DNA from: a phage
Length of the DNA: 64,000 bases
NCBI GenBank assembly: GCA_011939005.1
Contig: GCA_011939005.1_4858.1
Strand: one strand, 5' to 3'
Shown here: piece after piece, positions 9,224-44,631 of the stretch
How positions within the stretch are numbered: position 1 is the first letter of the stretch
How the letters are laid out: each line of letters begins with the position of its first letter
Made by a program: the position numbers and the translations under genes
The notes under the pieces: generated by a model
Database searches by the model: none
What the model was told of the DNA's origin: nothing
Seen by the model: only the letters and a program-made list of their open reading frames with translations

Positions 9224-9280
9224 TTTTTATATTCCTTTTGGGTCGTGCTTACACAGTAATTTACGTAGACGTAATAAAAA

Positions 9281-9304
9281 AAATAAGAAGCCTCTTCCCC
9301 CGGA
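9281..9304 (-). terminator. intrinsic terminator hairpin
   Basis: stem CCTCTTC/GAAGAGG around a CCCCCGGAGGA loop; A-run 9266-9275 on +; follows stop of 9321-9893. Confidence 0.4.
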
Positions 9305-9320
9305 GGAGAAGAGGGCTTAA

Positions 9321-11960: not shown

Positions 11961-14144
11961 TCACTTTGGTAATTGGTCTAACCGGAAGCCATCCATGTCA
12001 CGGTCGGCCACGCGCTCGGCAAGCGTCAGCTCCTCAAATGACGTCCGCACACGGATAATATCAATAGGCGGCTGTACCATATCGACCACAACATCCTGCT
12101 CGACCTTCACGCGGATACCAGGGTAGACATTCATCCGCAACTTAATACGTTGCGGGATTGCCATTTCCTTTATCACGGGAGCGACAGGGATGGGCTTATC
12201 CGTCGTCATGAATGAACTACGGCTCACACGCTGCACGTCTGTCAGAGGGTAAATGATATTTGTTGTATCGGCAGCCTCTGCGAGAATATCATCCAGAATC
12301 GGGATGACTGGGTCGGTGACATCGTAGGTGTCAGAACCCATACGTGCGGCAAAATGGACAGTGTACGACGAAAGCTTCGTCATTAACCGCACCATCGCGC
12401 GTTGTATTTCAGCTTGTGAGACAGACGCACGTGTTTCCAGATTAGTGGCCACGTTTAAAGCGTCGGTGGCGATATCCTGCCAGGTTTCCGCGGAGACTAA
12501 CTCGTAATCAAAACCAAACGTTTTGAAGAACTCGTCGTAATCGCGGTAAGGTAGGTCAAGATCGCACTTATAGTCACGGTAATGATAGGTAAACAGCATT
12601 GTGCCGGCAGCACGGTCGGCTAGCTTGTGTCGATTATACGAGTAACGGTAACGACGACGCTTCTGCACCATGATTTCGCTGATTTCATCGTACAGCTCAT
12701 CTGCAGACATCAAATTACCGATAACTTCATGATGCGTGTCCGTGTAATAGTTAATCAACGCATTAAAACGACCGGGCCATGAGCTTGGCAGATGCTGCTC
12801 CATCTCATCAAAACCAACCCAGCGTTTGATTAACACACCAAACACGTTCCACACCGGGATCTTATCCAGTGCTACGCCAGAATAACCTTTGAAGCTCGCA
12901 TACAAGAACAGTGCCAGCAGCTCTTTTGAAGTGAGCTTTAGCGTATCCCCGTTCGTTGGGTTAAGAATTTCGTGGTAAATGTTGTACTGTCCACGTGCCA
13001 CGATATGCATCCACTCGTTGAACAAGCCATGCATAAATTCCCAACGTTCGATGGCCTCTGGGTCAATCGCCGTTACCTCAACTAACTTCGTTGGCAGGTT
13101 CGGATACTGCGTCAAGCTCAAACGCCGATCGAGGTCTTCCTGATAGTCAGGTTCGTGCACTGGGTTATTGTACGCCAGTTTGATTTCTTTCTGGATGATG
13201 TCAGTTGTGCTAACAATGTCCAGGTCACGGCCCGAGTCACGTTCAGTATAGTTAAGCGACGACTGGTAGCCGATCGGGAGTGGTGTCAGGTCATCGTCGC
13301 TGCCCGTCGTCGGGTCGTGAATCTGCTGGGCGACCTTATATCCAACAGCAGGCATACCCCAACCTGTCAGCAGGGTGTCAATCATCCAAGTAAAGATTTC
13401 TTCCTTACCAGAGTTACGTTCCCAGTAACGGATATTGCGATACAGTGTGAATTTCTGCTTGAGGGTCAGGTACGGCATGAACTCGTGCAGTTCTTGGTGC
13501 GAAGCCAAGAACTCGGTCACGTAGTAGGAGTGCGTTTCGGTCGTAAACTGTAATCGTTTGCGGATGTACATGATAAGCCCCGGCCACACCGGGTACTGCT
13601 GCATGTAAAAGGCCAGTACGAAACAGTCGTTGTGAACTTTCCAGCCATCGGCCATGAAACGTACATGTGCCGCACGAATAAAGTTCTCAATATGTGTAAT
13701 TAACGACGTCTCCTGCGGTTCAACTAAAGCAGGATCGTAATACAAAATTGAGCAGTCATCGACACGTATCGCGTATGCAATATCAATCGGATTGAAAGTG
13801 CCGCGAATGTATACTGCGTAGTCCGGATACTCGGCGATTAAGTCATCGATATACTCCGGGTTAGAACGATATACGTTTGAGGTCTTTTTATGACGGGAGA
13901 GGTTCTGCGTCGTTAACTCTATCTGCTCTTGCGTGTCGAGTGACGTAATGTATATCGGCTTGTCGATTGCATGTCGTTTACCTGCTAAGTGTAGGTAATA
14001 CCGCCACGTCTCACGGTTCTCGGAAACGAAACCGCCGTTTTTGGTTATTGCCAGGTTCATCTGTTGTGCGATGCTCTCTGATTTGACAATCAGGGATTTC
14101 GCTAACTGGATAGCCTGGTCACGAAAAATGTTAAATCTCTGCAT
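11961..14144 (-). CDS. hypothetical large protein (727 aa)
   Basis: long ORF; first in-frame ATG at 14144 (ORF-track start 14156 is TTG); diverges from the plus-strand gene starting at 14156. Confidence 0.5.
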   Translation of the reverse strand: MQRFNIFRDQAIQLAKSLIVKSESIAQQMNLAITKNGGFVSENRETWRYYLHLAGKRHAIDKPIYITSLDTQEQIELTTQNLSRHKKTSNVYRSNPEYIDDLIAEYPDYAVYIRGTFNPIDIAYAIRVDDCSILYYDPALVEPQETSLITHIENFIRAAHVRFMADGWKVHNDCFVLAFYMQQYPVWPGLIMYIRKRLQFTTETHSYYVTEFLASHQELHEFMPYLTLKQKFTLYRNIRYWERNSGKEEIFTWMIDTLLTGWGMPAVGYKVAQQIHDPTTGSDDDLTPLPIGYQSSLNYTERDSGRDLDIVSTTDIIQKEIKLAYNNPVHEPDYQEDLDRRLSLTQYPNLPTKLVEVTAIDPEAIERWEFMHGLFNEWMHIVARGQYNIYHEILNPTNGDTLKLTSKELLALFLYASFKGYSGVALDKIPVWNVFGVLIKRWVGFDEMEQHLPSSWPGRFNALINYYTDTHHEVIGNLMSADELYDEISEIMVQKRRRYRYSYNRHKLADRAAGTMLFTYHYRDYKCDLDLPYRDYDEFFKTFGFDYELVSAETWQDIATDALNVATNLETRASVSQAEIQRAMVRLMTKLSSYTVHFAARMGSDTYDVTDPVIPILDDILAEAADTTNIIYPLTDVQRVSRSSFMTTDKPIPVAPVIKEMAIPQRIKLRMNVYPGIRVKVEQDVVVDMVQPPIDIIRVRTSFEELTLAERVADRDMDGFRLDQLPK

Positions 14145-14155
14145 CGGAGACCCCA

Positions 14156-16900
14156 ATGGAAGATATTAGTAAATTAACGGGCGACCCCGCGGTAGCTGCC
14201 ATACTGCGTAAGTCCACGAGCCCGTCGGCTCAGCAGCAACGCGGTAAGCGTGAAGATGGCGGTGTTACACCAACCCGTACAGAACTCACGGGCATTGCGA
14301 GTAGCCGCATTCGCACCGTTAAAAATGCCGAACGTATCTTTGATGCGCTCCCTGAGTTAGAGGTCATTGTTACCATCGCGACCTCCTCACTCCTGTCCAC
14401 AAAAGATTTGATTAACACCACGCTGATTTACGACAACGTGGCTGATATCCCGATCGACCTGCGTCAGCAGTTATTGGAACCTGTGCGTGAATTCCATGAC
14501 CACACGCGCCAGTTGCCCAACAAACTGTATCAGTGGATTTACGATGCACTGAAATCCAAAGGCGCGAGCCCAGTGTTGCTGATTTCAGATACCGGATTCG
14601 ATGAACTCTTCGGCTTAAAGCCGTCTGTTGCAACCGAATCGTTGCGCCGTAGCCAATCTGACTTCTTTGAACGTCAGTTGGGTATCCTGGGCAAGATTGG
14701 CGGTGAGAACAAACCGAAGGTTGGTGTAGAAAGTATTCTGGGCCGTGCACGTGGCGCTGACAAGCCCACCAAGCCACAAACCATTAAACTTAACTTTGCA
14801 TCAGCCCCTAACAGTCCGTTTAAAGCAGACGGTATGTTAGCTTCCCTGGATATCGTTATCACCGACAACCCGCGTATTACCCTGCTACCAGAGGCTTATC
14901 GCCGTGTGGCACAGGAGAATGCTCGCACCGGCCTGTTCGGTCAGTTAGAGCAGTACGCATATGAACAACCTTCTACGCCGACAGGTGCGTCAGAGTATAA
15001 CGCTGACCAGTTCACAGACAGCGAACAAGAGAAGGCAAAACTCGGTTTAATCAACATCGGCGACCTCAACGAAGCGTACCAGAAAACGCCTGAGCAAAAG
15101 CTTTACGGCGAAGTACCGAAGATGAGTTTCTCCGATGCTAACAAAATCGAATACACGGAACGATTACTGCCAGCAGAGTCCACACTCCCGCTCGTTATCG
15201 GTGATGATGTTCGTAACCCCATAGGTTATCTGGCCATCGTTGACGAAATGGGTAACTTCATTAACTCGCGTTCCACACTTTACGGGGATGCGAACTTCAT
15301 GAACTACCTGAACAACGACGGTATGGTAGATTCGACAATCAACCGTGCGAATCTGGGGATGGGCAACACAACCAGAATCACACCAGACATTGCTAACCGC
15401 TTAACAGCGCGTTATGGTGAAATTGCTGAAGACCAGCTAACCAAAGCTCTGGGTGAGGCGTTGGGTGGTGCTGAGATTAGCATGACAGTAACCGAAACGT
15501 TCAGCCGTATCATGCTGGCGCGCCATCTGGCAAAACGCCATACGCAGGTTATTTATATTCCTGCGGAAAACCTTTGCTACTTCGCCACGGACTTTGATGA
15601 AGACGGCATCGGTGTGTCTATTACCGAACGTTCGTTCGTTATCTCTACTGTCCGTATGGCGCTGCTGTTCGCTACCATGAACTCTGCGGTGTTAAACTCT
15701 GCCCGTCACATGCAGTACGACATTGAGTTGGCGCCAGACGACATGAACGGTCAGAAAACAATTGACCAGCTGAAAACAGACATCATGAACTCCTATAACC
15801 GTCGTCAACCGATGTGGGGGGACATGAACGACACCTGGGCAATGACGACAAACGCAGGTATTGCGTTTAACGTTATTGGTAACGACTACTACGGTAGTAC
15901 CAAAGTGTCTGTGTCGGATACTACGCCGGATTATAAATACCCGGATAAGGATTTCGACGAAGGTCTGTTACGTCGCACTTGTCACATCGCAGGTGTTGAC
16001 CCTGACCTGGTAATGACCCCCGAGAACATCGAATTCGCTTCACAGATTTTCTCTAAATCGTTACTGGTCACCCAGCAGGTTGTTAAGAAGCAAGAGATTC
16101 TCTCTAAGCCACTGACACGTTACGTAGTTAATGGGATGTTGGCCTCTCCGTCGTTGCAATCAGCGATGATTAAAATCATTGCAGAGTACATCAACGCTAA
16201 CGGTAATGGGATGACTACTGACCAGATTACGAAAAAGGTCTCTGAGTACCTGGCTGCGTTTATCAACGGTATGAAAGTAACCTTACCACCGCCAGACACC
16301 TCTGCAGCAGCTTCGCAGATGGAGCTGTTCGATAAACGTACGGAGTTCTTTGAGAAGCTGGCTGATCTGGTTGTAACGGATGACATTGCTGCGCAACTCC
16401 AGCAAGAAGGCATCACGATGGACCCGAACGATCTGAAGACGATGATCAAGTCCTTCTATACGCGCAACTGGCTGCGTAAACAAGGCATTGAAACTGACTT
16501 CTTCGATCTGGTTTACGACGATAAATCTCGTCAAGACAACATCACCATGATGACTGATGAAGCGATGGCTGCTTCGAAGACGCTGATTCAGTTGGCGAAA
16601 CGTTTTACAGGTCGTCTGGAAACGTTGGCGAAAAATGCTGACCTTGACCCTAACGAATCTGCTGGCGGATTCAGCGGTGGTTTTGATGCGGGCGGTGACA
16701 CCGGTGGCGGCGAGGGAGATCTCGGTGGTGGAGGTGACGATGATTTAGACCTCGATTTCGATACGGATAACGGAACCGACGGGGATAGTACAGGGGAAAC
16801 GACTGAGTCGACCGAAACCACGGAAACAACTACCGAGGGAACGGAAGGCACAGAAGGTGGTGAAGGAACTACCGACGACAACCCAGACAACGTCCTCTAA
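14156..16900 (+). CDS. RNA polymerase beta-prime N-terminal-like subunit, variant catalytic motif DFDED
   Basis: SRIMLARHL...CYFATDFDEDGIGVS...RMALLFATMNSAVL parallels bacterial beta-prime NRAPTLHRL...NADFDGDQMAVH...ALMMSTNNIL; C-terminal Gly/Asp/Thr/Glu low-complexity tail; GGAGA SD. Confidence 0.5.
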   Translation: MEDISKLTGDPAVAAILRKSTSPSAQQQRGKREDGGVTPTRTELTGIASSRIRTVKNAERIFDALPELEVIVTIATSSLLSTKDLINTTLIYDNVADIPIDLRQQLLEPVREFHDHTRQLPNKLYQWIYDALKSKGASPVLLISDTGFDELFGLKPSVATESLRRSQSDFFERQLGILGKIGGENKPKVGVESILGRARGADKPTKPQTIKLNFASAPNSPFKADGMLASLDIVITDNPRITLLPEAYRRVAQENARTGLFGQLEQYAYEQPSTPTGASEYNADQFTDSEQEKAKLGLINIGDLNEAYQKTPEQKLYGEVPKMSFSDANKIEYTERLLPAESTLPLVIGDDVRNPIGYLAIVDEMGNFINSRSTLYGDANFMNYLNNDGMVDSTINRANLGMGNTTRITPDIANRLTARYGEIAEDQLTKALGEALGGAEISMTVTETFSRIMLARHLAKRHTQVIYIPAENLCYFATDFDEDGIGVSITERSFVISTVRMALLFATMNSAVLNSARHMQYDIELAPDDMNGQKTIDQLKTDIMNSYNRRQPMWGDMNDTWAMTTNAGIAFNVIGNDYYGSTKVSVSDTTPDYKYPDKDFDEGLLRRTCHIAGVDPDLVMTPENIEFASQIFSKSLLVTQQVVKKQEILSKPLTRYVVNGMLASPSLQSAMIKIIAEYINANGNGMTTDQITKKVSEYLAAFINGMKVTLPPPDTSAAASQMELFDKRTEFFEKLADLVVTDDIAAQLQQEGITMDPNDLKTMIKSFYTRNWLRKQGIETDFFDLVYDDKSRQDNITMMTDEAMAASKTLIQLAKRFTGRLETLAKNADLDPNESAGGFSGGFDAGGDTGGGEGDLGGGGDDDLDLDFDTDNGTDGDSTGETTESTETTETTTEGTEGTEGGEGTTDDNPDNVL

Positions 16901-16930
16901 ACAAAAAAAAAAGAAAAAGAAATAAGGTTT

Positions 16931-16952
16931 ACCTCTCCCTTCGGGGAGAGGT
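16931..16952. terminator. bidirectional intrinsic terminator between convergent genes
   Basis: stem ACCTCTCCC/GGGAGAGGT with TTCG loop; T-run on + after (16955-16967) and A-run before (16902-16920). Confidence 0.55.
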
Positions 16953-16964
16953 ACCTTTTCTTTT

Positions 16965-17267
16965 TTAATCTTCTGTAGCAGCTTTGGGTTTATTAACCAG
17001 TTCGTCGAGCATGATACCAATCGCCAGAGGGTCGTTCTGGAAAGGTTCTAGCTTTTCCAATACCTTTGTATCCTTTGCTGCTTTTAACGCCTTCAGGAGG
17101 CCTTTACGGGCGTTATAGAAGATTTGCCAGCGACGTCCATGACTGATCGCTGTTTTGGCTTTGTGGAAGTCGGCTAAGAAAGCTTCAGTCGCTTTGTTTT
17201 CAGGTAACTCAAAGCGAAAACGCACACTACGCTCAAAATCCATATTGACAACAATGAACTTTACCAT
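16965..17267 (-). CDS. hypothetical protein
   Basis: 100-aa ORF with GAGGT SD. Confidence 0.45.
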   Translation of the reverse strand: MVKFIVVNMDFERSVRFRFELPENKATEAFLADFHKAKTAISHGRRWQIFYNARKGLLKALKAAKDTKVLEKLEPFQNDPLAIGIMLDELVNKPKAATED

Positions 17268-17301
17268 GCTCGAACCTCATTATAGAGCTACTCTATAATA
17301 A

Positions 17302-17568
17302 TTACGCCAGCGTAATGTGGTACTTATCAATGTCAGGGAATCGCTCTTTGATCATCCCGCAGAACATATCCAACACCGGATCAGTTTTTGCGGCCTTCTC
17401 CATCTCAGGAAAAACACTACGCAGTGGCACGCCAGGGTTCTGCCCTGCCGTTTTCTTAAGCTCTTCTTTATACTTTGCCAACAGAGATTTAACCCCTGTT
17501 GTCTTCGGGAAGCCACACCCTGCGACCCCATCGTTTTCAAAATAGATTACTGCTTCAACACTAGACAT
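17302..17568 (-). CDS. hypothetical protein
   Basis: start at ATG 17568 with AAGGAG SD (ORF-track start 17586 is GTG). Confidence 0.45.
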   Translation of the reverse strand: MSSVEAVIYFENDGVAGCGFPKTTGVKSLLAKYKEELKKTAGQNPGVPLRSVFPEMEKAAKTDPVLDMFCGMIKERFPDIDKYHITLA

Positions 17569-17608
17569 TTTAATACTCCTTTTCACGATAAAATAAAAAA
17601 TAATAATA

Positions 17609-17626
17609 GGAGACCCGAAGGTCTCC
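17609..17626 (-). terminator. intrinsic terminator hairpin, UUCG loop
   Basis: stem GGAGACC/GGTCTCC with CGAA loop on +; A-rich tract 17591-17608 on +. Confidence 0.5.
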
Positions 17627-17633
17627 GTATTAC

Positions 17634-19304
17634 TTAGTACAACACTGGTGCAGTTTTCTCACCATTGCTCAGAAGCAGGTAGGTGCGCTGCGGCAGCTGC
17701 ATTAACACAATTGCATGTGGCACGTTTTCCTGTACTGCTTCGTAGATAGACACAACCGGGTCTGCGGTATTGCCCAGAGACGCTACCGTAACTACGTCGT
17801 GTTTATCAACAGAATGGTACATGCCTGGAATCACGATGGTGAACTGGCTCTGAATCAGGTTAACCACCTTGCCAGAATCGCTCAGCTTGATAGTCAGTTT
17901 GCGCAGAGAGTTCGCTACCATCAGGAACAGGTCACGGAACCAGTCTTCATATTCACTTACGCCGTTGTCGCCAGCGGTTGCTGTGAACAGATCTTTTACG
18001 AAGAAATCAATATCGCTGATTTTCCGTTCGAAATCGATAGCTTTGAACTTCGGCACATCTTTACCGCGCTTAGTGCCCAGCGACAGCGCGTTGTGTACCA
18101 GGAAAGTGATATTCGCCAGGTACGCATTAGCAAAGCGAGAAATCTCACTGATAACCACTTCTGCTTCACTGCTGTTCGCAATCGCATATTCGTGCAGTTC
18201 TTTCGTGTTCTTACGCAGTTCATCGATCGTACGTTTCACCTTAGCCATGATAGTTTCAACATCTTCTACCAGTGCCAGGTTGTCGAGATCGGATTTCAGT
18301 GCGTCGTGCTTAGCAACAAATTGCTTCATGCGTTCGCACATGTCAGTGTTAACACCGACCAGATACGCGCGATAGCTATCACGTGCACGCACAATCAGGT
18401 CAGCCCCGTCGTAGAAAACAACCTCTTCATTACCGTTAAAGATATCTTGCAACGGTGTAGCCCAATCACGCGTTTCCGCGTAAACAGATTGCTTAATGCG
18501 ACTGTTAGCTTCCTTCGCTGGAATCGACATTTTAAGCTCGGGGGTTTTCAGCTCGTGAAGTGCGTAGTCTTCCATCAAATCAATCTCCTGCAGAATGTTG
18601 TTAATTGGGCCATTGATAGTGTCCTTCTCGGTTTCTTCTGTTGCGCCGAGTGGGGAAAGCACTGGGTTATTAACTGTAGCATTAGACACCGGCATTGGTT
18701 GTACAGGCACCGGTGCTGGTTCAGGCCGGGGCTGTTGTGCTGGGGCTACTTGCGCCGGTTGTGGGTTCAGAATAGGATCATTGACCAGGTTAAGACCTTC
18801 ACCGCCAGCAATCACGGTTAGTGCCGCATCTGTGTTACCAATCTTAACACCACCAGATGGCGCAGAAGACATGGTCAGGCCATCAGTAACACGAACACCG
18901 CCAGAACTGTTACCGCCCAGTAACCCACCTGCGTTGCTACCACCACCTAAACCACCACTGCCACCCAAACCGCCAGACTGCTGAGAACGAATTTCGGCAA
19001 GAATCTTACCGACTTGTTCCCAAGCATTAACCAGTTTGGTGTGACGATCGTCGTTATACGCGTCGCCTGCGTTATGCACCTGCTGATAGGCAGCTGCTTT
19101 ATACGCATCGACCGCATATGCGATAACCTGTGCTTCACTACCCCCTTTGGATGCTGCCCATGCCGCAACATACGTCGCAATCTTTAACGCCTGATCTGGC
19201 GGAATGCTACGGCTGCGCATCACATTATTCAGCTGCGACAGTACCGCGTCCTGATCGAGGTGTTTAACGATGACGTTTTTGATTTGTTCAACAGTAATGC
19301 TCAT
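17634..19304 (-). CDS. hypothetical protein with Gly-rich and Pro-rich linkers
   Basis: 556-aa ORF, AAGGAG SD; GGLGGSGGLGGG and PQPAQVAPAQQPRPEPAPVPV low-complexity segments; strong codon periodicity. Confidence 0.5.
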   Translation of the reverse strand: MSITVEQIKNVIVKHLDQDAVLSQLNNVMRSRSIPPDQALKIATYVAAWAASKGGSEAQVIAYAVDAYKAAAYQQVHNAGDAYNDDRHTKLVNAWEQVGKILAEIRSQQSGGLGGSGGLGGGSNAGGLLGGNSSGGVRVTDGLTMSSAPSGGVKIGNTDAALTVIAGGEGLNLVNDPILNPQPAQVAPAQQPRPEPAPVPVQPMPVSNATVNNPVLSPLGATEETEKDTINGPINNILQEIDLMEDYALHELKTPELKMSIPAKEANSRIKQSVYAETRDWATPLQDIFNGNEEVVFYDGADLIVRARDSYRAYLVGVNTDMCERMKQFVAKHDALKSDLDNLALVEDVETIMAKVKRTIDELRKNTKELHEYAIANSSEAEVVISEISRFANAYLANITFLVHNALSLGTKRGKDVPKFKAIDFERKISDIDFFVKDLFTATAGDNGVSEYEDWFRDLFLMVANSLRKLTIKLSDSGKVVNLIQSQFTIVIPGMYHSVDKHDVVTVASLGNTADPVVSIYEAVQENVPHAIVLMQLPQRTYLLLSNGEKTAPVLY

Positions 19305-19335
19305 TGTAAATAATACTCCTTAAGAGATGTAATAA

Positions 19336-21114: not shown

Positions 21115-21125
21115 ACCGGCCTCCC

Positions 21126-22130: not shown

Positions 22131-22166
22131 TGAACATCCCAGTAATAATACCAAAAGAATTATTCA

Positions 22167-22185
22167 CGTAGATAATATCTATCTC
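22167..22185 (-). promoter_or_regulatory. promoter-like motif GAGATAGATATTATCTACG (class 2, copy b)
   Basis: GATAGATATTATC core about 40 nt upstream of ATG 22130. Confidence 0.35.
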
Positions 22186-22243
22186 AGATTACTTTGGGCA
22201 CGGGTTCATACCCAGTGCCCTTAACGTAAAAAACTTTAGGGTA

Positions 22244-22327
22244 TCAAACGTGGTGACCGTTCGCCATAGAACCGCGCCCATCAAACATCGGTGCAACTAG
22301 TCTTGATCTCTCTAAATTGACTTCCAT
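22244..22327 (-). CDS. small ORF (27 aa), candidate
   Basis: AAGGAGA SD 7 nt upstream of ATG 22327 (MEVNLERSRLVAPMFDGRGSMANGHHV); about 40 nt downstream of class-2 motif copy c. Confidence 0.2.
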   Translation of the reverse strand: MEVNLERSRLVAPMFDGRGSMANGHHV

Positions 22328-22360
22328 TACTGTCTCCTTAAGTTAAAACCGAATGACTTT

Positions 22361-22384
22361 CTCCCTAAGATAATATCTATCTAT
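22361..22384 (-). promoter_or_regulatory. promoter-like motif ATAGATAGATATTATCTTAGGGAG (class 2, copy c)
   Basis: near-identical to copy a (1856-1876); directly downstream of terminator 22408-22431. Confidence 0.35.
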
Positions 22385-22407
22385 AAATTTTTAGAAAAAA
22401 AGAAAAA

Positions 22408-22431
22408 GCTTACTCCCCGAAGGGAGTAAGC
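22408..22431 (-). terminator. intrinsic terminator hairpin, UUCG loop
   Basis: perfect 10-bp stem GCTTACTCCC/GGGAGTAAGC, CGAA loop on +, A-run 22394-22407 on +; follows stop of 22463-24763. Confidence 0.55.
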
Positions 22432-22462
22432 TAATCTTAGGCAACGTAATCCTTACGGATTA

Positions 22463-24763
22463 TTAGCCGCCAGCGCCTTCACCGCCAGTACCTGGCTGGG
22501 TAGCGCCGCCGCCAACATCACCCGCATTACCGCCATTAGTACCGCCAGTACCGTTGGAAGTAGTAGTGACGTTGAACGCCAGTTTCTCTTCCACGAACTT
22601 GGTGATACCTTTAATCCAGATCAGACCAGTGATCGGGCAGTGGCAGATGTGCGCGTTACGAGGCTGTACTGCCAGCTCTTTGCTGGTAGCGCCGTTACGC
22701 TGGATGTTGATGTTGGTTACCATGATCGGAGACCAGAAGTGGTTACCCCAGTTCAGAACACAGTAAGAACCGTCATCAGCGGTTGGAACTTTCAGAACCC
22801 ACTGCAGGCGGCGAGTCCAGCTGCCGTCAGCTTCGTTCTTCACACGCCAGCGGTCATCGTTGGTGGTGATAACTTCGTACTCGTAGCGATCGCCCAGCAG
22901 ACGCTGGTCACCCTGAACCAGCAGCAGCATTGCAGCAGTCGGTTCGTCAGTTGCGATAACAACTTTCGGCAGTGCGTTCGGGTCCGCAGTCAGCAGGCGC
23001 AGAGCCGGCATGAAACGAGAATCCTGGATAGCACGAGTTACCTGGTCGCCGATACGCTGTACCAGACCCTGACGGGCGTTGATGAGCGCATCTTTGGTAT
23101 CCAGAGACTGGATCACTTTGTCCACTTCGTAGTCGCTTTCGCTGTACCACGGAGCAACCCAGTGACGGCCCAGGCCGCGGATAGCAGGTTTGTCCCACGG
23201 AGTGATCATGGACGCAGCTGCGTTCTTAACCGCTTCGGTGTAAGACAGAGTCTGAGTGATAGCCAGCATTTCGTTACGGATGTTAACCGCAGAAACGAGG
23301 TCGTCCAGACGTTCGGTGTCGTCGTATTCAACGCCAACCGGAGATTTGGTCATGATCGGAGAACCGTACTGCAGTTTGTAGTTCTCTTGTTCCCAAATCG
23401 GGTCGAGCAGAAGGCCCTGGGTTCTCCGGTTCTCGTTGGTACGAGTACCGTCGAAGCGCCAGCCCAGCAGCTCCAGTTTCAGGTTGTCGATGATGACTTT
23501 GCCGGTGCCGCTTTCGATATCAACAGCAGTACCAGTTGCGTCGTACAGACCTTCGATTTCCAGAGACGGTGCAGTCACGTCAACACGACCAGAGAACTGA
23601 CCGTTGGTGAACAGAGACATGCTGATGTTCATGGAATAACGAATGGTGTAATCGTTCTGTGCCAGAGCGGCCAGTGCCGGGATTTCAGCACCTTTCCAGT
23701 CCAGAGACTTGGCGTTCAGGGAGAACACAGTGCGACGGAACTGCAGGACCAGCTCACGGCCATCACCTTCAGGAGGACGCTGGAAGGTAGCGAACTGCAT
23801 GTCGCGTACGTTCAGTTTGATCAGCGCGCCATCTTTCGCTTCTTCAGTCGGCTTACGCACAGACAGCAGCAGGCTACCCAGCGCTGCACCCGGTGCGATT
23901 TCGTCGGTTTCATCGTAACCTTCCTGCACGATACCCGGATGGGCAGACAGCTGGAACAGGTTCAGACGACGTTCAGAGAAGCTCAGGTAGTTGGTCGGAT
24001 ACGCCGGCACACGACCCAGCTGAACGTTTTCGTTTTCGATGATGTCTTCGGATACGAAGAACTTCGCGTTCTCACCGGTTTCCATCACGTAAGGTACGAT
24101 ACGGATAGCATCGTCCTGCAGGACTTTGTGGTTAGACAGCGCGTTATGCAGCGGCTGACGGTTGTCTTCAACCACGTCTTTGGTCAGCAGGGCGTTCAGG
24201 ATACCACGAGTTACAGTAGTAACTTTGGTACGAACGGTGATGCCGACGTCGTTGGTGTCCACAGTGATGGTCGGGAACAGGGTTTCTGCAAACTTGGATT
24301 GAGTTTCCAGAGCACGCACGTTCAGCGTCCAGGTCAGACCCAGGTTTTTGTCCAGGTCTTTGTTGGTGTAGTATTCAGTTGCGACCAGCGGAGTTTTACC
24401 GTAGTCAGCAGCCAGAGATGCTGCACCAGAAATAGCGATCGGCATGTAGCTGGCGTATTCCGGCTTCGCGCTCTCGGCAGCAACACGGGTCATGAAGTCG
24501 TCTTCGTGACCGGCAGCAGCCAGAATCATCGCAGAAGCAACCTGAGCAGCGTGGCTCATGGTTTTGCCAGGGTTTACAGCTTCGTAGTGCTGCTGAGCAG
24601 TGTCACGCAGGTTGGTGAAGCCGGCAGCATTTTTACGTACAGATTCGCCAACGGCTACGGTTTGCCATACGTCATTAGCGGAAGAGCCTGCCTTGGCAGC
24701 AGCGACCAGAGCATTGCCCTGCTGAACCAGCTGGTCCAGACTAGCGATACGGGTATCTTTCAT
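22463..24763 (-). CDS. major virion structural protein (major capsid protein candidate)
   Basis: 766-aa ORF with AAGGTAAA SD and strong terminator; codon periodicity strong enough to leave a 715-aa antisense frame open; Gly-rich C-terminal tail. Confidence 0.4.
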   Translation of the reverse strand: MKDTRIASLDQLVQQGNALVAAAKAGSSANDVWQTVAVGESVRKNAAGFTNLRDTAQQHYEAVNPGKTMSHAAQVASAMILAAAGHEDDFMTRVAAESAKPEYASYMPIAISGAASLAADYGKTPLVATEYYTNKDLDKNLGLTWTLNVRALETQSKFAETLFPTITVDTNDVGITVRTKVTTVTRGILNALLTKDVVEDNRQPLHNALSNHKVLQDDAIRIVPYVMETGENAKFFVSEDIIENENVQLGRVPAYPTNYLSFSERRLNLFQLSAHPGIVQEGYDETDEIAPGAALGSLLLSVRKPTEEAKDGALIKLNVRDMQFATFQRPPEGDGRELVLQFRRTVFSLNAKSLDWKGAEIPALAALAQNDYTIRYSMNISMSLFTNGQFSGRVDVTAPSLEIEGLYDATGTAVDIESGTGKVIIDNLKLELLGWRFDGTRTNENRRTQGLLLDPIWEQENYKLQYGSPIMTKSPVGVEYDDTERLDDLVSAVNIRNEMLAITQTLSYTEAVKNAAASMITPWDKPAIRGLGRHWVAPWYSESDYEVDKVIQSLDTKDALINARQGLVQRIGDQVTRAIQDSRFMPALRLLTADPNALPKVVIATDEPTAAMLLLVQGDQRLLGDRYEYEVITTNDDRWRVKNEADGSWTRRLQWVLKVPTADDGSYCVLNWGNHFWSPIMVTNINIQRNGATSKELAVQPRNAHICHCPITGLIWIKGITKFVEEKLAFNVTTTSNGTGGTNGGNAGDVGGGATQPGTGGEGAGG

Positions 24764-24775
24764 TTCAAGTTTACC

Positions 24776-25300
24776 TTATTTAGATAAATGACATGCGTAC
24801 AACTGCGTCAGCACTTCGTGCGCAGCAAACTGCGTCGACGTACTGAACGTATCATCCACGACACGAGTCTTGGGACGCATATATTTAAAAAGTTCTGCGC
24901 AGAACATCTTTTTCGCAGCGTGGTCTTCACTTAAAGAAAAACCCGGTCCGGATTTAGCTTCTGCAAAAGACGCCACAACAACATCGCCACGTTGTGAGAA
25001 CACCCAACGTAAACGACCGTCGAATGATTCCCCATATAAATCAGCAAGGGTTTCATTCGTACCTTTCTCAACCAGGTTTAAGACCTGGTCATAATAAAGA
25101 GTCGGAAGTGCAGGTGGTGCCATAATCGATTTATAAATCGAAATAGGGTCACTCACTGGCAGTATGATGGAACTAAAGCCCGACGAGCAGTCATATAACC
25201 AGTTAAAGAAGCTTGCTTGGAGTTCCTCCAACTTTTTAACGCCAGCCCCTTTATCTATGTTAGATTGAACTTCCCACGGTGGACTAAAACGAATTTGCAT
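24776..25300 (-). CDS. hypothetical protein
   Basis: start at ATG 25300; diverges from plus gene starting at 25315. Confidence 0.4.
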   Translation of the reverse strand: MQIRFSPPWEVQSNIDKGAGVKKLEELQASFFNWLYDCSSGFSSIILPVSDPISIYKSIMAPPALPTLYYDQVLNLVEKGTNETLADLYGESFDGRLRWVFSQRGDVVVASFAEAKSGPGFSLSEDHAAKKMFCAELFKYMRPKTRVVDDTFSTSTQFAAHEVLTQLYACHLSK

Positions 25301-25314
25301 TTTAAGGATGCTCC

Positions 25315-26877
25315 ATGAATAGTAAAATGATGTTGATAACCGCCTTAGCCGCACTGTATACAGAATCTATGCTGACGGACCCTAGCAAGGATCATGATGT
25401 CATAAGAAAAGTTCTGATGCAGATCAAGCTTCCGGAATATGCGGAAGATGGCGAAGAGCGCTTTGCACTCATCGAGATCAAGGACATTATCACATCTATC
25501 ATAGACGGCGGCATGGAATACGACCACGCGAGCGTTATGAAGCGCTTGAAGCTGGCCACCACTCAAGTACGTCCTCTATACGATACGATTACCAAATTCC
25601 TCGAAGACGATTTGCCCGAGGAAGAAGACAAACGTACCGAGCATCTTAATCGACAACTGTCTCAATATTATTTCCAACTACGTCAATGTTTACAGAGCGT
25701 CGAACTAAAAACAAAAATGGGTCGCGCGTTTGGAGCATTGAATGGAACTGAGACACGTGTTGATCTGAACACCGCAGTGCTCGAACTCAAAGAGGCGCTA
25801 TCTACGTTCGGTGAACGCTCTCATAATAAGATTCCATCACTGGTCGGTGAGCTGGTTACAGATAATCGGGCTCCGTTTGTTAAAGTGTTCGACTCGATTA
25901 ACAAGAAAGCAGCAGGTAATGGTTTGCAGACGGGCTGGAAAGCCATTAACCAAATGCTCGGTTGTAACAAAGGGATTACCGAAGAACTGTGGCTAATGCC
26001 GGCGTTACCTTTTAACTGTAAGTCTTTGTTCAGTCTCTTACTGAGCTTATCGATTCCTATCTTCAACACGCCTGAGAAAGTAATGGCGGATGTGAAGGGC
26101 ACACTGCAACCAATTATTCTTGACTTGAGTTTAGAAAACGAACTCGACGTTAACTTAGCTTACGGCTATCAAGCACTGTACGGTCATTTTGAAGGACAAG
26201 TTCCACAGATGACCATTGCACAGGATGCAACCGCTGAAGAGAAGTTAGCACACACAACAGCAATGTCTGATTACCTCTGTGGTAAGATTCGCGCAAACGG
26301 TTGGGACTACGTTTTCCAAAAGCACACCAACTCCGATTTTAAAGTGCACTACATCAACGACCTTATTCTCGACTTACGTCGTCGCGGTTATCATGTTGTT
26401 GGCATTCGCGCAGACTACTTAGGCACAATCAGCAAAGCAGGACACGGCAACGGCATTGCCGGGAGTGATATCAAAGAAATTTATCGTATTGCTCGTAACA
26501 TCCAAGTGGTACGCAACCGTGGGTTCTTAATTGCCCCACACCAGATTTCCCCAGAAGGTAAGCGCTTAAAAGCGTTAGACCCGGTAGGTTTCTGTAAGAA
26601 CTTACCTGGTCGTGGTCTTTACGATAGTTGTTCGAGCCTTGATAACGAGGCCGATGGTGAAATGTATTTTAACAAGCGTGTGGTCAACGGCCATAGCTTC
26701 TTAGAAGTTCAACGCGGTAAACACCGCACCATTATCGATACTAAAGAATCTTATCACTACACAGTGATACCTTTCCAGGATGTTGGCATCCTACCTTGGG
26801 ATTGTGATAAAGAAGAAACCGTAACAGCGTCGTCTATCAACTTCTTCACCGGTGGAATGGGTGATGATTTGTTCTAA
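25315..26877 (+). CDS. hypothetical protein
   Basis: 520-aa ORF, AAGGA SD 8 nt upstream. Confidence 0.5.
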   Translation: MNSKMMLITALAALYTESMLTDPSKDHDVIRKVLMQIKLPEYAEDGEERFALIEIKDIITSIIDGGMEYDHASVMKRLKLATTQVRPLYDTITKFLEDDLPEEEDKRTEHLNRQLSQYYFQLRQCLQSVELKTKMGRAFGALNGTETRVDLNTAVLELKEALSTFGERSHNKIPSLVGELVTDNRAPFVKVFDSINKKAAGNGLQTGWKAINQMLGCNKGITEELWLMPALPFNCKSLFSLLLSLSIPIFNTPEKVMADVKGTLQPIILDLSLENELDVNLAYGYQALYGHFEGQVPQMTIAQDATAEEKLAHTTAMSDYLCGKIRANGWDYVFQKHTNSDFKVHYINDLILDLRRRGYHVVGIRADYLGTISKAGHGNGIAGSDIKEIYRIARNIQVVRNRGFLIAPHQISPEGKRLKALDPVGFCKNLPGRGLYDSCSSLDNEADGEMYFNKRVVNGHSFLEVQRGKHRTIIDTKESYHYTVIPFQDVGILPWDCDKEETVTASSINFFTGGMGDDLF

Positions 26878-27157: not shown

Positions 27158-27173
27158 GTAGTGCCTCCTTAGG

Positions 27174-27416: not shown

Positions 27417-27442
27417 GTTAACCTCTAAGTGGATGTGAATAA

Positions 27443-42227: not shown

Positions 42228-43346
42228 TTACAGTACCGGATTCGCGCCGACGCGATAGGCATCGATGATTTTGTTTACATCGCCGCTACCGGACTTCGCC
42301 TTGCTAAAGTCTGATTTGTCGAGTTCTTGAGACCCGGTCTGGCCACGCGTATAAATGGTTACACGGTTCCAGGTCTGGTCGACAACCACGTAGTAAACAG
42401 TCAGGGTGTCTTTGAACACACGCTGGCGGATATTGTAATCATCGAAGTCACCGCCCAGCTGAGCAGTCAGATCGTCGATAGTTTCTTGAGAAACCACCAT
42501 AACCGAAGACGCGTTGTTGATGGATGGGCTCAGCGTCAGTAGGCCAGACAGCCAGTTGGCGTTTTTCTTTTCCATCATCTTGCGGTAATAACCGGACTTA
42601 TCACGGAAGCGGTTCTTACGGTATTCTTCGATAAGGTCATTACACAGCGCGATATCTTTCGCGTAGCTGAGAGAACCGACCTTCGCACGCAGCACGCGTT
42701 CCCAGAAGGTTTTAGTCTGATCGCTGAACGCAATCAGTGTTTTCATTTCGTCGGTTGGCAGAGACTTCACATCAAGACGCAGACGCATCGGCAGCTCAAC
42801 TTTATTACCGTCACGTTCGAAGGTAACAGAGAACACTTTACCGTTGGACAGTCCTTCTTGATCATGCAGGAGCTTCAGTGTGTTGTTCGGCAGCACAGAA
42901 CCTGCGGATGATTCAGTCGCTACTTTGTTATCGGATTTCTGGCGACGGGATTCACCGACCGCAAGCCCGATTTTATCGTATGACGGCAGCGCGTGACGGG
43001 AGGACTCGCCGATTGCGAAAGACGCTAAGCGAGAACCCGAACGTGCAGCCGCGTCGAGGGCATTACGACGGGTGCTAACCTGGTCAAGCGTACCAAGGAT
43101 ATCAACCTCAGGAACACCTACCAGAATTGAGATGGCGGTAAGTTGGTTGCCCGCGAGCAGGATTTGGATTTTCTCCAGAATACCTGGCAGGTAATCTAAG
43201 CCCAACAGACTTTGTTCAACCAGCGTGGTGTGCTCGTTGTACAGCACAGAGTTGAATTCTTCCGTCGATTCCGCCCGCTGGCGAAGCAGCATGGGAAACT
43301 TAGAAAGAAAGGAGACGAGCGATGTCTCAAATGTTTTTTCTGCCAT
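42228..43346 (-). CDS. hypothetical protein
   Basis: 372-aa ORF; diverges from plus gene at 43369. Confidence 0.5.
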   Translation of the reverse strand: MAEKTFETSLVSFLSKFPMLLRQRAESTEEFNSVLYNEHTTLVEQSLLGLDYLPGILEKIQILLAGNQLTAISILVGVPEVDILGTLDQVSTRRNALDAAARSGSRLASFAIGESSRHALPSYDKIGLAVGESRRQKSDNKVATESSAGSVLPNNTLKLLHDQEGLSNGKVFSVTFERDGNKVELPMRLRLDVKSLPTDEMKTLIAFSDQTKTFWERVLRAKVGSLSYAKDIALCNDLIEEYRKNRFRDKSGYYRKMMEKKNANWLSGLLTLSPSINNASSVMVVSQETIDDLTAQLGGDFDDYNIRQRVFKDTLTVYYVVVDQTWNRVTIYTRGQTGSQELDKSDFSKAKSGSGDVNKIIDAYRVGANPVL

Positions 43347-43368
43347 TTTTAACTAAACTCCGGAGTTA

Positions 43369-44631
43369 ATGATGAGTAACGAGACCGATAAGAACGATCC
43401 GGGGTATGACCCGAATACCGACTACGACAATTCGTATCAAAACCCGAATAATATCGATGCAGTACCATCGGTCGCCGACTACTTTGACCGTCGACTGTCC
43501 GATGCGAAACCCACCACGGCGTACAACGTTAATGATGAGTTATCGGGTTGGAATGACCGTATCCGTCTTACGTTAGGTTTGGGTCTGGCTGCGCAGCGTG
43601 TGACCAACCCCTACATGGGGTTCAACCATATGATGGCGTCGAACCCGACGCCTGTTAACCGTGAGTACGGTGGCCTAACCTTCATTACCCGCCCTGACTT
43701 CAACTTGTGCTTTGACAACATTGCCAACTCGCGCAAGATGTCGAACATGGCTTCTCAGCCGAAATCGTCACTCGACTATTCCATTCTGGCAGCGTTAGAC
43801 CCAGATTTTGAATTGGGGTTCTCTGATTCACCGATGGAAGATGGGCGAAGAAAGAACCGTTTGGGCACGCCATTCATGAAGGACATTATGTTTGACAATC
43901 TTCAGGCATTCATACCATTGCTGAGTACACAGATGCTGAGCCTCTCGGGGATGCCTGACCAGTCTGTCGATAACTGGATGTCTGAAGAAGGTTTAATGCG
44001 CGAACAGTGGGGTATGGTTGACTCCACACATGAAATCAATAACCAGTACAGTATGTCGATGTCGCTGAACAACCCATACGGCAACCCAATCATGCGAATG
44101 ATGGGCGTGTGGCTGGAGTATATGTCCGGCATTAAGATGGGTAAGTTCAAACCGAAGATGCGTAATTCCATCCAGCGTCGCATTGACTACCAATCGAGGA
44201 TGTACGGGTTTAAATACGACGCGCTCGGAAACATCACTCGTTTCTGGACAGCGTGTGTTTGTTGGCCGATGAACGATAACGCCGGTCAAATGGCGAATGT
44301 CGATAACACCAAGCCTCAATTAAATGACGACACCACAATTAACCTCAACTGGCAATGCATCGGGGCGCGCTTCGATGACCCATTGTACATGGAGATGTTC
44401 AACTTGACGGTGTCTATGTTTAACCCGGATATGATGCCGCAACCAGGGAGCGTTGCAGCGGGCAACTTTATCCCGATTGCTGAAGACCAGCTTGTGCCGA
44501 TTGCACCACAGCTACTACCGCTGTTCAACTACTACGGCTATCCGCACATCGACTCCCTGCGTCGTAAACTGACCTGGTATGTTTATCAGGCAGATTACCA
44601 ATTCATCCTTAAACGAGCGGGCTTACTGTAA
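43369..44631 (+). CDS. hypothetical protein, possible structural protein
   Basis: 420-aa ORF, GGAG SD; stop overlaps next start (TAATG). Confidence 0.5.
   Translation: MMSNETDKNDPGYDPNTDYDNSYQNPNNIDAVPSVADYFDRRLSDAKPTTAYNVNDELSGWNDRIRLTLGLGLAAQRVTNPYMGFNHMMASNPTPVNREYGGLTFITRPDFNLCFDNIANSRKMSNMASQPKSSLDYSILAALDPDFELGFSDSPMEDGRRKNRLGTPFMKDIMFDNLQAFIPLLSTQMLSLSGMPDQSVDNWMSEEGLMREQWGMVDSTHEINNQYSMSMSLNNPYGNPIMRMMGVWLEYMSGIKMGKFKPKMRNSIQRRIDYQSRMYGFKYDALGNITRFWTACVCWPMNDNAGQMANVDNTKPQLNDDTTINLNWQCIGARFDDPLYMEMFNLTVSMFNPDMMPQPGSVAAGNFIPIAEDQLVPIAPQLLPLFNYYGYPHIDSLRRKLTWYVYQADYQFILKRAGLL

Follow-up and report, generated by a model that had tools for sequence, protein, structure and literature searches.

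Tight divergent gene junctions in an SPN3US-like jumbo phage: ribosome-binding sites in the spacers and candidate promoters in the partner genes

Genes and start codons at the junctions

The window, by which we mean the whole stretch of 64,000 nucleotides that was analysed, comes from a jumbo phage of the SPN3US type, a Seoulvirus related to phiKZ, and is 97-98% identical to SPN3US and its relatives. The host is Salmonella, and the three junctions described here belong to the phiKZ-like (Chimalliviridae) jumbo phages. By annotation only, the phage encodes split multisubunit RNA polymerases: the RefSeq annotation of SPN3US carries several genes for an RNA polymerase beta subunit, among them the homologues of positions 60897-64000 of the window, and the vRNAP subunits are named in PMC5694885. 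An Rfam scan of the whole window matched no family.

The first junction lies between gp82 (11961..14144, minus strand), which is virion structural protein 9 and opens a long cluster of minus-strand genes, and gp81 (14156..16900, plus strand), named as the portal protein in PMC5694885. These are homologues of phiKZ gp128 (for gp82, blastp E=4e-90, aligned from residue 4, with PHROG 3222 covering residues 1-725) and gp129. A terminator-like, bidirectional hairpin with a 10-bp stem and a TTCG loop (16930..16953) separates the portal stop from the upstream minus-strand genes. At the second junction gp74 (24776..25300, minus strand; 174 aa, PHROG 8266 over residues 1-174) heads the major-capsid operon, with the major capsid protein gp75 (22463..24763, minus strand) downstream in the same direction. 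Its partner is the DnaB-like replicative helicase gp73 (25315..26877, plus strand; Pfam PF20307 E=1e-124, PHROG 3213 over residues 1-520), a homologue of phiKZ gp118 (blastp E=2e-45). The third junction joins the head protein gp50 (42228..43346, minus strand), a homologue of phiKZ gp89 (blastp E=2e-34) with a propeptide of 127 residues (PMC5694885), to the virion protein gp49 (43372..44631, plus strand), a phiKZ gp88 homologue (E=1e-30) of the putative tail-tube family PF23971 in Pfam. The next gene after gp49 is gp48. The counterparts in phiKZ are syntenic (gp128/129, gp118/119 and gp88/89, with spacers of 35, 211 and 39 nt), and blastp homology to phiKZ was found for five of the six flanking genes. 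The sixth, gp74, gave no significant blastp match to phiKZ gp119, which is its positional counterpart only.

The open reading frames that meet at the junctions encode 727/914, 174/520 and 372/419-420 aa. On the minus strand the ATG (CAT on the plus strand) is found at 14142-14144, 25298-25300 and 43344-43346, and on the plus strand at 14156, 25315 and 43369/43372. The original prediction gave the paired starts as 14144/14156, 25300/25315 and 43346/43369. The pairs are real, but the third has to be corrected to 43346/43372, as gp49 aligns to the second ATG and not to 43369 in all relatives. The spacers are 11 nt (pair 1), 14 nt (pair 2) and 25 nt (pair 3, not 22 nt).

For conservation we used 8 genomes from 5 genera (Seoulvirus, Erskinevirus, Machinavirus, Wellingtonvirus and Derbicusvirus). 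These were GenBank phage records, since a search of IMG/VR with the portal protein gave 4 loci, too few for footprinting. Both ATGs of all three pairs are conserved in 8/8 genomes, with spacers of 11-15, 11-14 and 21-29 nt, and identical starts are annotated in GenBank or RefSeq for SPN3US, EC001, STsAS, Asesino, Huxley, ChrisDB, Kwan, pEa_SNUABM_11 and CR5. Past the ATGs the alignment of relatives has substitutions chiefly at third positions and indels in multiples of 3. The tblastn matches of the portal protein begin at residue 1 even in genomes at 53% identity, and the PHROG profiles match gp82, gp74, the helicase and gp50 from residue 1-2. True starts further apart were not seen in the homologs, and judging from these alignments all six start codons have been assigned correctly and are conserved.

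In the SPN3US genome as a whole, credible divergent spacers number 17; they measure 11, 14, 22 and 29 nt and then 57-280 nt, and three of the four tightest fall in the window. Such tight junctions exceed chance. The arrangement had been called unusual even for compact phages, a judgement to be tempered: the short spacers are a conserved trait of the family, and most of the other divergent spacers in SPN3US are likewise short, at 57-76 nt.

Contents of the spacers

Each spacer consists of two Shine-Dalgarno sequences (SDs), either back to back or sharing one palindrome. The spacer of pair 1, CGGAGACCCCA (14145..14155, 11 nt), is nearly invariant in the 8 genomes. It contains the SD of the portal gene (GGAG, 14146-14149), 6 nt before the ATG, whereas the ATG of gp82 is preceded on the minus strand by a weak GGGG only. 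In CR5 this spacer reads GGAG...CTCC, which is an SD on both strands. The spacer of pair 2, TTTAAGGATGCTCC (25301..25314, 14 nt), is invariant at AAGG.TGCTCC in the 8 genomes and holds the helicase SD (AAGGA, 25304-25308), 6 nt before the ATG, and the gp74 SD (GGAG, complement CTCC at 25311-25314), 10 nt before the gp74 ATG. The spacer of pair 3 (43347..43371, 25 nt) is built around the invariant palindrome CTCCGGAG (43358-43365), which lies within a 12-nt palindrome (43356-43367) and puts a GGAG on each strand, 6 nt before the ATG at 43372 and 11 nt before that of gp50. SDs of 4 nt or more, spaced 3-13 nt from the start codon, were found for 47 of the 61 genes in the window and for 5 of the 6 junction genes. 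The junction SDs lie inside the spacers and are GGAG or (T)AAGGA, 6-11 nt before the ATG, with gp82 (GGGG) as the exception.

Given that the 11-25 nt are filled by two SDs, these spacers have room neither for a promoter nor for a transcription start site (TSS) that would give a leadered mRNA. This bears out the view that there is no room for conventional intergenic promoters, as do the sigma-70-like sites, which are not enriched: a scan of 12-28 kb found 12 against 18 expected in shuffles. The spacers are touched by a single sigma-70 match, a minimal one (9 of 12) on the minus strand at 25326-25299, which runs over spacer 2 and both start codons. Host-type sigma-70 promoters were rejected on these two counts, and a conventional sigma-70 divergent promoter region was set aside in view of the SDs that occupy the spacers.

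Antisense TATG in the partner genes

In phiKZ the nvRNAP uses the late consensus 5'-T(-3)ATG(+1)-3' and transcribes from the G (Ceyssens 2014; Yakunina 2015, PMC4666361). The TATG is necessary for initiation in vitro, yet not sufficient alone (PMC4666361). We took TATG from this late-promoter core as an a priori candidate; it is not a motif discovered here. A promoter of this kind, with a 4-base initiator core over the start site and no -35/-10 elements, can be written into a reading frame. This is what is seen in the TSSs of phiKZ mapped by ONT-cappable-seq (Putzeys et al., bioRxiv 10.1101/2023.10.13.562163, Tables S3/S5). P070 at 130258, which leads TU100 (portal), lies 70 nt inside the gp128 coding sequence (CDS; 128154-130328), and P046 at 88779, which leads TU072 (gp89-90), lies 175 nt inside that of gp88 (87905-88954), so that the portal and gp89 leaders measure 106 and 215 nt. 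In the same data P062 (117303) is inside gp118 and P064-P067 are inside gp119. The arrangement is already known in kind, from relatives like phiKZ with starts inside the neighbouring CDS.

The P070 and P046 junctions resemble ours in that they are homologous head-to-head pairs with short spacers (35 and 39 nt), where the phiKZ TSS sits in the neighbouring CDS and ends TATG(A). They differ in that the spacers in the window are shorter still (11-25 nt) and contain SDs only, and in that the sites here are predicted whereas the phiKZ ends are mapped. The gp118/119 spacer of phiKZ is 211 nt with a classical promoter, P119L, while its counterpart here is 14 nt. The window has no TATG at the codon positions homologous to P070 and P046; the position equivalent to P070 reads GATTTGACAATCA, which lacks it. 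Promoter positions have evidently turned over between phiKZ and the SPN3US clade. A literature search found no transcriptome or TSS map for SPN3US or a close relative.

Pair 2 has the candidates closest to the start codons. The block TTATCTATGT (25251..25260, plus strand), antisense in gp74, is invariant in 8/8 genomes and includes TATG at 25256-25259, by which the helicase transcript would start at G 25259, 56 nt ahead of the helicase ATG. In the helicase gene the invariant block GTCATAAGAA (25399..25408), which reads TTCTTATGAC on the antisense (minus) strand, gives a candidate TSS for gp74 and the capsid operon at 25401, 101 nt ahead of the ATG of gp74; the helicase codons at this block, GTC ATA AGA, are frozen across the 8 genomes. 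The helicase gene has one more invariant antisense block (25821..25835; minus strand GGAATCTTATTATGA), with a candidate upstream TSS at 25822. On the sense strand of gp74 we also found the invariant block GATTTATATGGG (25031..25042, minus strand), 270 nt upstream of the capsid ATG, which together with a TATG at 25090-25093 may represent candidate internal capsid promoters, comparable to those in phiKZ gp119. As a counterpoint, the helicase is expected to be a middle gene and TATG is a late motif in phiKZ.

At pair 3 the invariant block TATCGTATGACGGCA (42974..42988, plus strand), antisense in gp50, offers G 42982, 390 nt before the ATG, as a candidate TSS for gp49. In gp49 an antisense TATG present in 8/8 genomes (43627..43630, minus strand) offers a candidate gp50 TSS at 43627, 281 nt upstream, for which P046 is the phiKZ analogue, and a second antisense TATG (43911-43914, minus strand) lies within an 11-nt invariant block. 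The candidates at pair 1 are weak. The core proposed for the portal gene (13889..13892, plus strand, in the context cttttTATGAC) is antisense in gp82, 264 nt before the portal ATG, and although it is found in 8/8 genomes, a conserved His-Lys accounts for most of its invariant run, which is just 5 nt long. The core proposed for gp82 (TATG, CATA on the plus strand, 14958..14961, minus strand) is antisense in the portal gene, 814 nt before the gp82 ATG, and is present in 8/8 genomes of the codon alignment, again with an invariant run of 5 nt. No conserved antisense TATG was found closer to gp82 than this. All six junction genes have 1-2 antisense TATGs that are invariant in 8/8 genomes and aimed at the start of the partner, 56-814 nt off. 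Several of the candidates have a T-rich tract upstream, as in phiKZ P070, and TATG is absent from all three spacers.

The conservation of these copies is well above the background. When the six junction genes are aligned by codon, 8 of 18 antisense TATG copies are invariant, against a background of 3.2% (P=3.6e-8). All 8 invariant copies fall in the first 900 nt, and antisense TATG ranks first of 253 4-mers for invariance. In ten control genes none of the 8 antisense copies is invariant. An independent map based on blastn gave invariance for 7/12 proximal and 0/14 distal copies (Fisher P=0.0012), and in this map all 7 invariant copies are proximal (P=1e-5). Looked at from the side of the conserved blocks, invariant runs of at least 10 nt outside the capsid gene hold TATG in the productive orientation in 8 of 18 cases, and the top non-capsid runs of invariant degenerate codons do so in 5 of 8.

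TATG is also avoided elsewhere. Outside the junction genes there are 31 antisense copies against 75.7 in synonymous-codon shuffles (ratio 0.41), the strongest depletion of all 256 4-mers, and 137 sense copies against 206 (ratio 0.67); these depletion figures include any k-mer bias derived from the host. Within the first 900 nt of the junction genes antisense TATG is instead enriched (14 vs 8.6, P=0.008). In the phiKZ sample, which served as a positive control, depletion of TATG/CATA is mild (ratio 0.85), in the right direction but much weaker than in the window phage. By count, co-directional intergenic DNA has no evident excess of sense TATG; the strand bias there is about 6 to 1. The hexamer TATGAC was rejected as a consensus, as it had been chosen post hoc and its 24 copies against about 32 expected give no overall enrichment. 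Taken together, conserved TATGs and avoidance of the motif match the selection signature that a functional signal would leave.

Proposed embedded promoters and alternative explanations

We think it probable that these are three ancient and conserved junctions of phiKZ type, which in the SPN3US clade have been compressed to two ribosome-binding sites, with the promoters embedded in the CDS of the partner. The clearest conserved TATGs sit in blocks with frozen synonymous sites. For each gene, the multisubunit RNA polymerase of the phage itself would start at a minimal initiator of phiKZ type, located antisense within the 5' portion of the partner; often a T-rich tract precedes the TATG, whose G would be +1. 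Within a pair the two promoters would then face each other and give overlapping divergent transcripts, with an overlap of about 143 nt at pair 2 (25259 to 25401), about 650 nt at pair 3 (42982 to 43627) and, at pair 1, perhaps some 1 kb. Because any candidate TSS, if real, lies inside the divergent partner, the leaders would be mutually antisense, as in excludon geometry, and the 5' leader of every mRNA would be complementary to its partner's ribosome-binding site and initial codons. The cost to the coding sequence would be the frozen synonymous sites at the promoter cores. The suggestion that phage RNA polymerase promoters are embedded in coding DNA thus receives indirect support, from the phiKZ TSSs, the antisense TATGs kept in 8/8 genomes, the frozen blocks and the avoidance of TATG; the SPN3US-clade TSSs at TATG are predictions. 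Pair 1 is the weakest case and the gp82 promoter is poorly defined, since the TATGs are 264 and 814 nt off and their 5-nt invariant runs are largely explained by amino acid conservation.

An alternative for at least one of the six, with gp82 and its downstream cluster foremost, is transcription from a distant promoter by read-through along the antisense strand of the neighbour, which we regard as unlikely but worth keeping in mind. It would fit with gp82 having no well-supported promoter candidate within 800 nt, and with the phiKZ data, which contain no TSS or transcription unit for the gp82 homologue gp128 (bioRxiv 10.1101/2023.10.13.562163). However, such transcripts would have to cross terminator-like hairpins at the convergent ends (16930-16953, 26886-26903 and 26970-26997), although the minus-strand tail of the first is only moderately T-rich. 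In phiKZ the upstream unit TU103 (gp130) stops at T059, before the portal gene (bioRxiv 10.1101/2023.10.13.562163), and in the window the nearest upstream intergenic spacer of usual size from which the portal gene could be reached is 97 nt (9224-9320) and 4.8 kb off. Read-through also leaves the conserved and correctly oriented antisense TATGs without explanation.

It is improbable, in our estimation, that the antisense TATG blocks are some other signal (RNA processing, protein binding or codon pairs) and that the real promoters in the coding DNA have a different, unrecognised sequence. The promoter-specificity subunit (phiKZ gp68 family) does diverge fast among phiKZ-like phages (PMC4666361), late promoter motifs are unlike between phiKZ and AR9, and the depletion of TATG in phiKZ is mild. 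On the other hand TATG was chosen a priori and came first both for antisense conservation and for antisense avoidance, and every conserved copy is aimed at a co-oriented gene start 56-814 nt away. For embedded promoters as such there is a precedent in AR9, a Bacillus jumbo phage with 13 late promoters inside ORFs, some of which drive antisense transcription (Lavysh et al. 2017, PMC5312081). It is similar in having promoters of a phage multisubunit RNA polymerase within ORFs, and differs in that its motif, AACA-N6-TW, is uracil-dependent and read from the template strand, with no reported link to minimal divergent junctions.

Misannotated start codons, with true starts further downstream and real intergenic regions between them, are very improbable. 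In-frame Met codons also occur at positions 5 and 6 of the helicase, gp49 begins with a choice of two neighbouring ATGs and the SD of gp82 is weak, but the helicase Met5/6 would extend the spacer to only 26-29 nt, the next in-frame ATG of gp82 is codon 29, past conserved residues, and the invariant ATGs with SDs at proper spacing, the third-position substitutions in the N-terminal codons and the protein matches from residue 1-2 all speak for the annotated starts. Weakest of all, and to be given almost no credence, is a bidirectional initiator in the spacer that yields leaderless or near-leaderless mRNAs for both genes: the spacers and the pair 3 palindrome are extremely conserved, but what is conserved are canonical SDs at canonical spacing, relevant only on leadered mRNAs, there is no TATG in the spacers, and the phiKZ TSSs at the homologous junctions lie 106 and 215 nt before the ATGs. 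Leaderless mRNAs as such were rejected on the same SDs and phiKZ leaders.

Returning to embedded promoters, a 2020 review held that the middle and late promoters of these phages are not predictable by bioinformatics (PMC7598289), so that the transcription map of jumbo phages with their own RNA polymerases depends on experiment. Two comparative signals, avoidance relative to synonymous shuffles and cross-genus invariance at synonymous sites, now single out TATG in the SPN3US clade and give concrete candidate promoter positions for the portal gene, the capsid operon, the helicase and two virion genes. A divergent control region could be compressed to two shared ribosome-binding sites when the polymerase needs only a 4-base initiator. 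In phage engineering, deleting the 5' part of any of these genes, or recoding it synonymously, would likely kill expression of the neighbour.

Divergent 5' UTRs that overlap are known from the excludons of Listeria, and in coliphage 186 the face-to-face promoters pR and pL lead to reciprocal expression through transcriptional interference. The predicted promoters here would likewise face each other, with each leader antisense to the 5' region of the partner, but the known cases use the host sigma-70 RNA polymerase and have real intergenic regions. It is speculative that face-to-face promoters cause transcriptional or antisense interference here, for example by shutting off the helicase when the capsid operon fires. 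That the junctions are regulatory devices and not the outcome of compaction alone, an excludon-like temporal switch operated by the phage RNA polymerase in the phage nucleus with mutually interfering partners, seems to us rather unlikely. In such a switch, polymerase collision and duplexes between leaders, or between a leader and a ribosome-binding site, would allow strong late gp74/capsid promoters to silence the helicase, and gp50 would be balanced against gp49 in the same way. The invariant palindromic spacer AACTCCGGAGTT might double as the binding site of a dimeric regulator.

Start codons and spacers of the three divergent pairs

The window is 97-98% identical around its three head-to-head gene pairs to Salmonella phage SPN3US, a 240-kb jumbo phage of the genus Seoulvirus related to phiKZ, and to about 30 close relatives; the SPN3US record runs in the opposite orientation. 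We use the gp numbers of the literature, which equal 266 minus the RefSeq locus-tag number and run in the opposite direction (conversion anchors: portal gp81 is ACQ60_gp185 and capsid gp75 is gp191). Pair 1 sets gp82, a virion protein of 727 aa (11961-14144, minus), against portal gp81 (14156-16900, plus). Pair 2 consists of gp74 (174 aa; 24776-25300, minus), immediately upstream of the major capsid gene gp75 (22463-24763), and the DnaB-like helicase gp73 (25315-26877, plus; Pfam PF20307). In pair 3 the head protein gene gp50 (42228-43346, minus) is divergent from gp49 (43372-44631, plus), which encodes a virion protein that Pfam assigns to a putative tail-tube family.

The minus-strand ATGs end at 14144, 25300 and 43346 and the plus-strand ATGs begin at 14156, 25315 and 43369/43372, with identical starts called in independent annotations of nine related genomes. 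The junctions were compared in eight genomes of five genera (the window, STsAS, Asesino, Huxley, ChrisDB, Kwan, pEa_SNUABM_11 and CR5), among which portal identity falls to 53%. Both start codons are invariant in all three pairs, the spacers between them span 11-15, 11-14 and 21-29 nt for pairs 1, 2 and 3, and true starts further apart were not seen in the homologues. Alignments 3' of each ATG are coding-like, the changes being mostly third-position and the indels 3, 6 or 9 nt, with one two-step synonymous Arg change in gp82. The portal tblastn alignment begins at residue 1, and PHROG profile matches of gp82, gp74, the helicase and gp50 begin at residue 1-2. The three tight pairs of the original prediction are thus real, except that the plus start of pair 3 is 43372 and not 43369, which makes its spacer 25 nt. 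Two ATGs adjoin there (43369-43374); the first is used by the original prediction, some annotations and the ORF list, while the second is matched by all seven relatives and also gives the canonical 6-nt spacing to a Shine-Dalgarno sequence (SD).

The whole SPN3US record holds 17 credible divergent spacers, besides one dubious 43-aa overlapping ORF. The shortest are 11, 14, 22 and 29 nt and the others 57, 63, 66, 67, 70, 72, 76, 98, 124, 163, 180, 206 and 280 nt, so the three pairs form the tight end of the distribution, but the word unusual needs qualifying, as short divergent spacers are the rule in SPN3US. The 29-nt junction lies outside the window (NC_027402 212327/212357), between a tail-fibre gene (minus) and an RNA polymerase beta-subunit gene (plus), and its spacer, too, has a GGAG ahead of a GTG start.

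Spacer 1 (CGGAGACCCCA) carries GGAG 6 nt upstream of the portal ATG and only GGGG on the gp82 side; in CR5 (GGAGacaaCTCC) there is one SD per strand. Spacer 2 (TTTAAGGATGCTCC) has AAGGA 6 nt upstream of the helicase ATG; CTCC, directly adjoining that start codon, is the complement of a GGAG at a distance of 10 nt from the gp74 ATG. In spacer 3 an invariant palindrome, CTCCGGAG, provides GGAG to both mRNAs. A comparable SD is present in 47 of the 61 window genes. The spacers are two ribosome-binding sites with no further content, and the claim that they leave no room for conventional promoters holds: sigma-70-like sites are not enriched (12 found, 18 expected), and the only one to touch a spacer is a minimal 9-of-12 match (25326-25299). 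Since the start of a leadered mRNA must precede its SD, it falls within the partner's reading frame.

Mapped starts at the phiKZ counterparts

The closest known case is phiKZ, at homologous genes. By blastp gp82 matches gp128 (E=4e-90), the portal gp129, the helicase gp118, gp50 gp89 and gp49 gp88; gp74 and phiKZ gp119 are counterparts by position only. The phiKZ spacers are 35 nt for gp128(-)/gp129 portal(+), 211 nt for gp118 helicase-like(-)/gp119(+) and 39 nt for gp88(-)/gp89(+). In phiKZ the gp128 CDS is 128154-130328 and the portal CDS starts at 130364, which places the late transcription start P070 70 nt inside gp128; P070 (130258, plus, ending ...AAATTTTATGA) was mapped by ONT-cappable-seq and heads the portal unit TU100 (bioRxiv 10.1101/2023.10.13.562163). 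In the same study P046 (88779, plus) heads TU072 (gp89-gp90) from 175 nt inside gp88, P062 (117303) falls within gp118, and P064-P067 fall within gp119, upstream of the capsid gene; the published list has no transcription unit for gp128, and the upstream unit TU103 ends short of the portal gene. Phage AR9 has 13 late promoters within ORFs (PMC5312081). The window differs from phiKZ in that its spacers are cut to shared ribosome-binding sites, the same solution taken further, with 14 nt at pair 2 against the 211-nt P119L region. We found no published description of such junctions in SPN3US-like phages.

Conservation and avoidance of TATG

The phiKZ late promoter is a four-base initiator, T(-3)ATG(+1), which in vitro is needed yet insufficient alone (PMC4666361; PMC7598289). 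TATG was therefore an a priori candidate. The six junction genes hold 18 antisense TATGs (opposite the gene that contains them and pointing towards its partner), and codon-aware alignment shows 8 of these to be invariant in the eight genomes, against an antisense 4-mer background of 3.2% (binomial P=3.6e-8). No other of the 253 4-mers ranks higher; next come CCCA and CCAT, which complement words containing Trp or Met codons. All eight fall within 900 nt of the gene start, with at least one per junction gene, whereas none of eight antisense TATGs is invariant in the ten co-directional genes used as controls (14.6 kb). An independent blastn-based map finds invariance in 7 of 12 junction-proximal and 0 of 14 distal copies (Fisher P=0.0012), TATG again ranking first for proximal enrichment (P=1e-5).

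Only 17% of degenerate codons with an invariant amino acid are codon-invariant. Outside the capsid gene, a productively oriented TATG occurs in five of the eight longest invariant-codon runs and in 8 of the 18 stretches of at least 10 invariant nt. Such blocks are found, for instance, in gp74 (TTATCTATGT), in gp50 (TATCGTATGACGGCA) and in the helicase gene, where GTCATAAGAA reads TTCTTATGAC on the antisense strand and the rare codons ATA and AGA are frozen.

In the 47 kb of non-junction genes, shuffling of synonymous codons shows antisense TATG to be the most depleted of 256 4-mers (31 against 75.7 expected, ratio 0.41), with sense TATG at 137 against 206; TA-containing 4-mers show no general depletion (median ratio 0.98). 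Over the 5' 900 nt of the junction genes, antisense TATG shows an excess (14 vs 8.6, P=0.008). The phiKZ positive control shows weak depletion in the same direction (ratio 0.85, z=-5.2 and -3.0). Such shuffles of the window coding regions also show GATC with the strongest depletion of any 4-mer by z-score (95 vs 207), which suggests Dam/MutH or restriction-system pressure; AATT is strongly depleted too (109 vs 204), and the SD-like words GAGG, AGGA and GGAG are avoided within genes.

Late promoters have been called bioinformatically unpredictable (2020 review, PMC7598289). This work is of value mainly for showing that comparative signals can pick out their cores and for the testable promoter predictions that it offers.

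Predicted promoter layout and other features

We infer that the SPN3US-clade polymerase would initiate at the conserved TATGs and that the divergent transcripts of each pair would overlap. For pair 2 the candidate starts are 25259 (plus), 56 nt before the helicase ATG, and 25401 (minus), 101 nt before the gp74 ATG, with a second minus-strand candidate at 25822; these putative promoters would face each other and yield mutually complementary leaders overlapping by a predicted 143 nt. For pair 3 they are 42982 (plus), 390 nt before the gp49 ATG, and 43627 or 43911 (minus), 281 or 565 nt before the gp50 ATG, with a predicted overlap of at least 646 nt. The face-to-face layout could, speculatively, be regulatory, like excludons or transcriptional interference. 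Two sense-strand copies of TATG within gp74, at 25033 and 25090, are possible capsid-gene promoters, in parallel with phiKZ gp119.

Pair 1 is the weak case. Its candidates, 13892 (plus), 264 nt before the portal ATG, and 14958 (minus), 814 nt before the gp82 ATG, predict an overlap of about 1 kb; both TATGs are kept in 8/8 genomes, only within 5-nt invariant runs that amino-acid conservation could explain. Here gp82 could instead be transcribed by read-through, although a bidirectional hairpin at 16930-16953 lies in its path.

The window has a fourth divergent junction (51175-51244, 70 nt) between virion protein gp45 (minus) and DNA polymerase gp44 (plus). TATG occurs on both strands at this junction: the minus-strand copy, with its G at 51227, is in the spacer, 53 nt upstream of the gp45 start, and the plus-strand copy, with its G at 51154, is 20 nt within gp45 and 91 nt upstream of the polymerase start codon.

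Leaving the capsid gene aside, the longest invariant block is ATTTAAAAAGTTCTGCGCAGAAC (24883-24905, inside gp74), which lacks TATG. Placed some 120-140 nt upstream of the capsid start codon (24763), it spans seven consecutive invariant degenerate codons in the eight genomes and includes the palindrome GTTCTGCGCAGAAC, followed by TTTTT on the minus strand; it could be an attenuator, processing site or protein-binding site ahead of the capsid gene. A 715-aa open frame (22640-24787, plus) antisense to nearly the entire capsid gene probably reflects strong codon bias rather than a gene. Terminator-like hairpins are twice as frequent at 12000-28000 as in shuffles (31 vs 14.9), for example at 16930-16953, 17609-17626, 22407-22432, 26970-26997, 27443-27464 and 27500-27523; in many the loop is the tetraloop TTCG or its complement CGAA, and two of the hairpins have the symmetry to work on either strand. 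At 40679-40718 three invariant GC-rich blocks, ACACGCCCCT, GGGGCCCCCT and AGGGACGTGCGAT, cover the end of the gene at 40704-41261 together with the spacer leading into the internal head protein gene (39370-40647), and may be a conserved hairpin or terminator plus ribosome-binding region.
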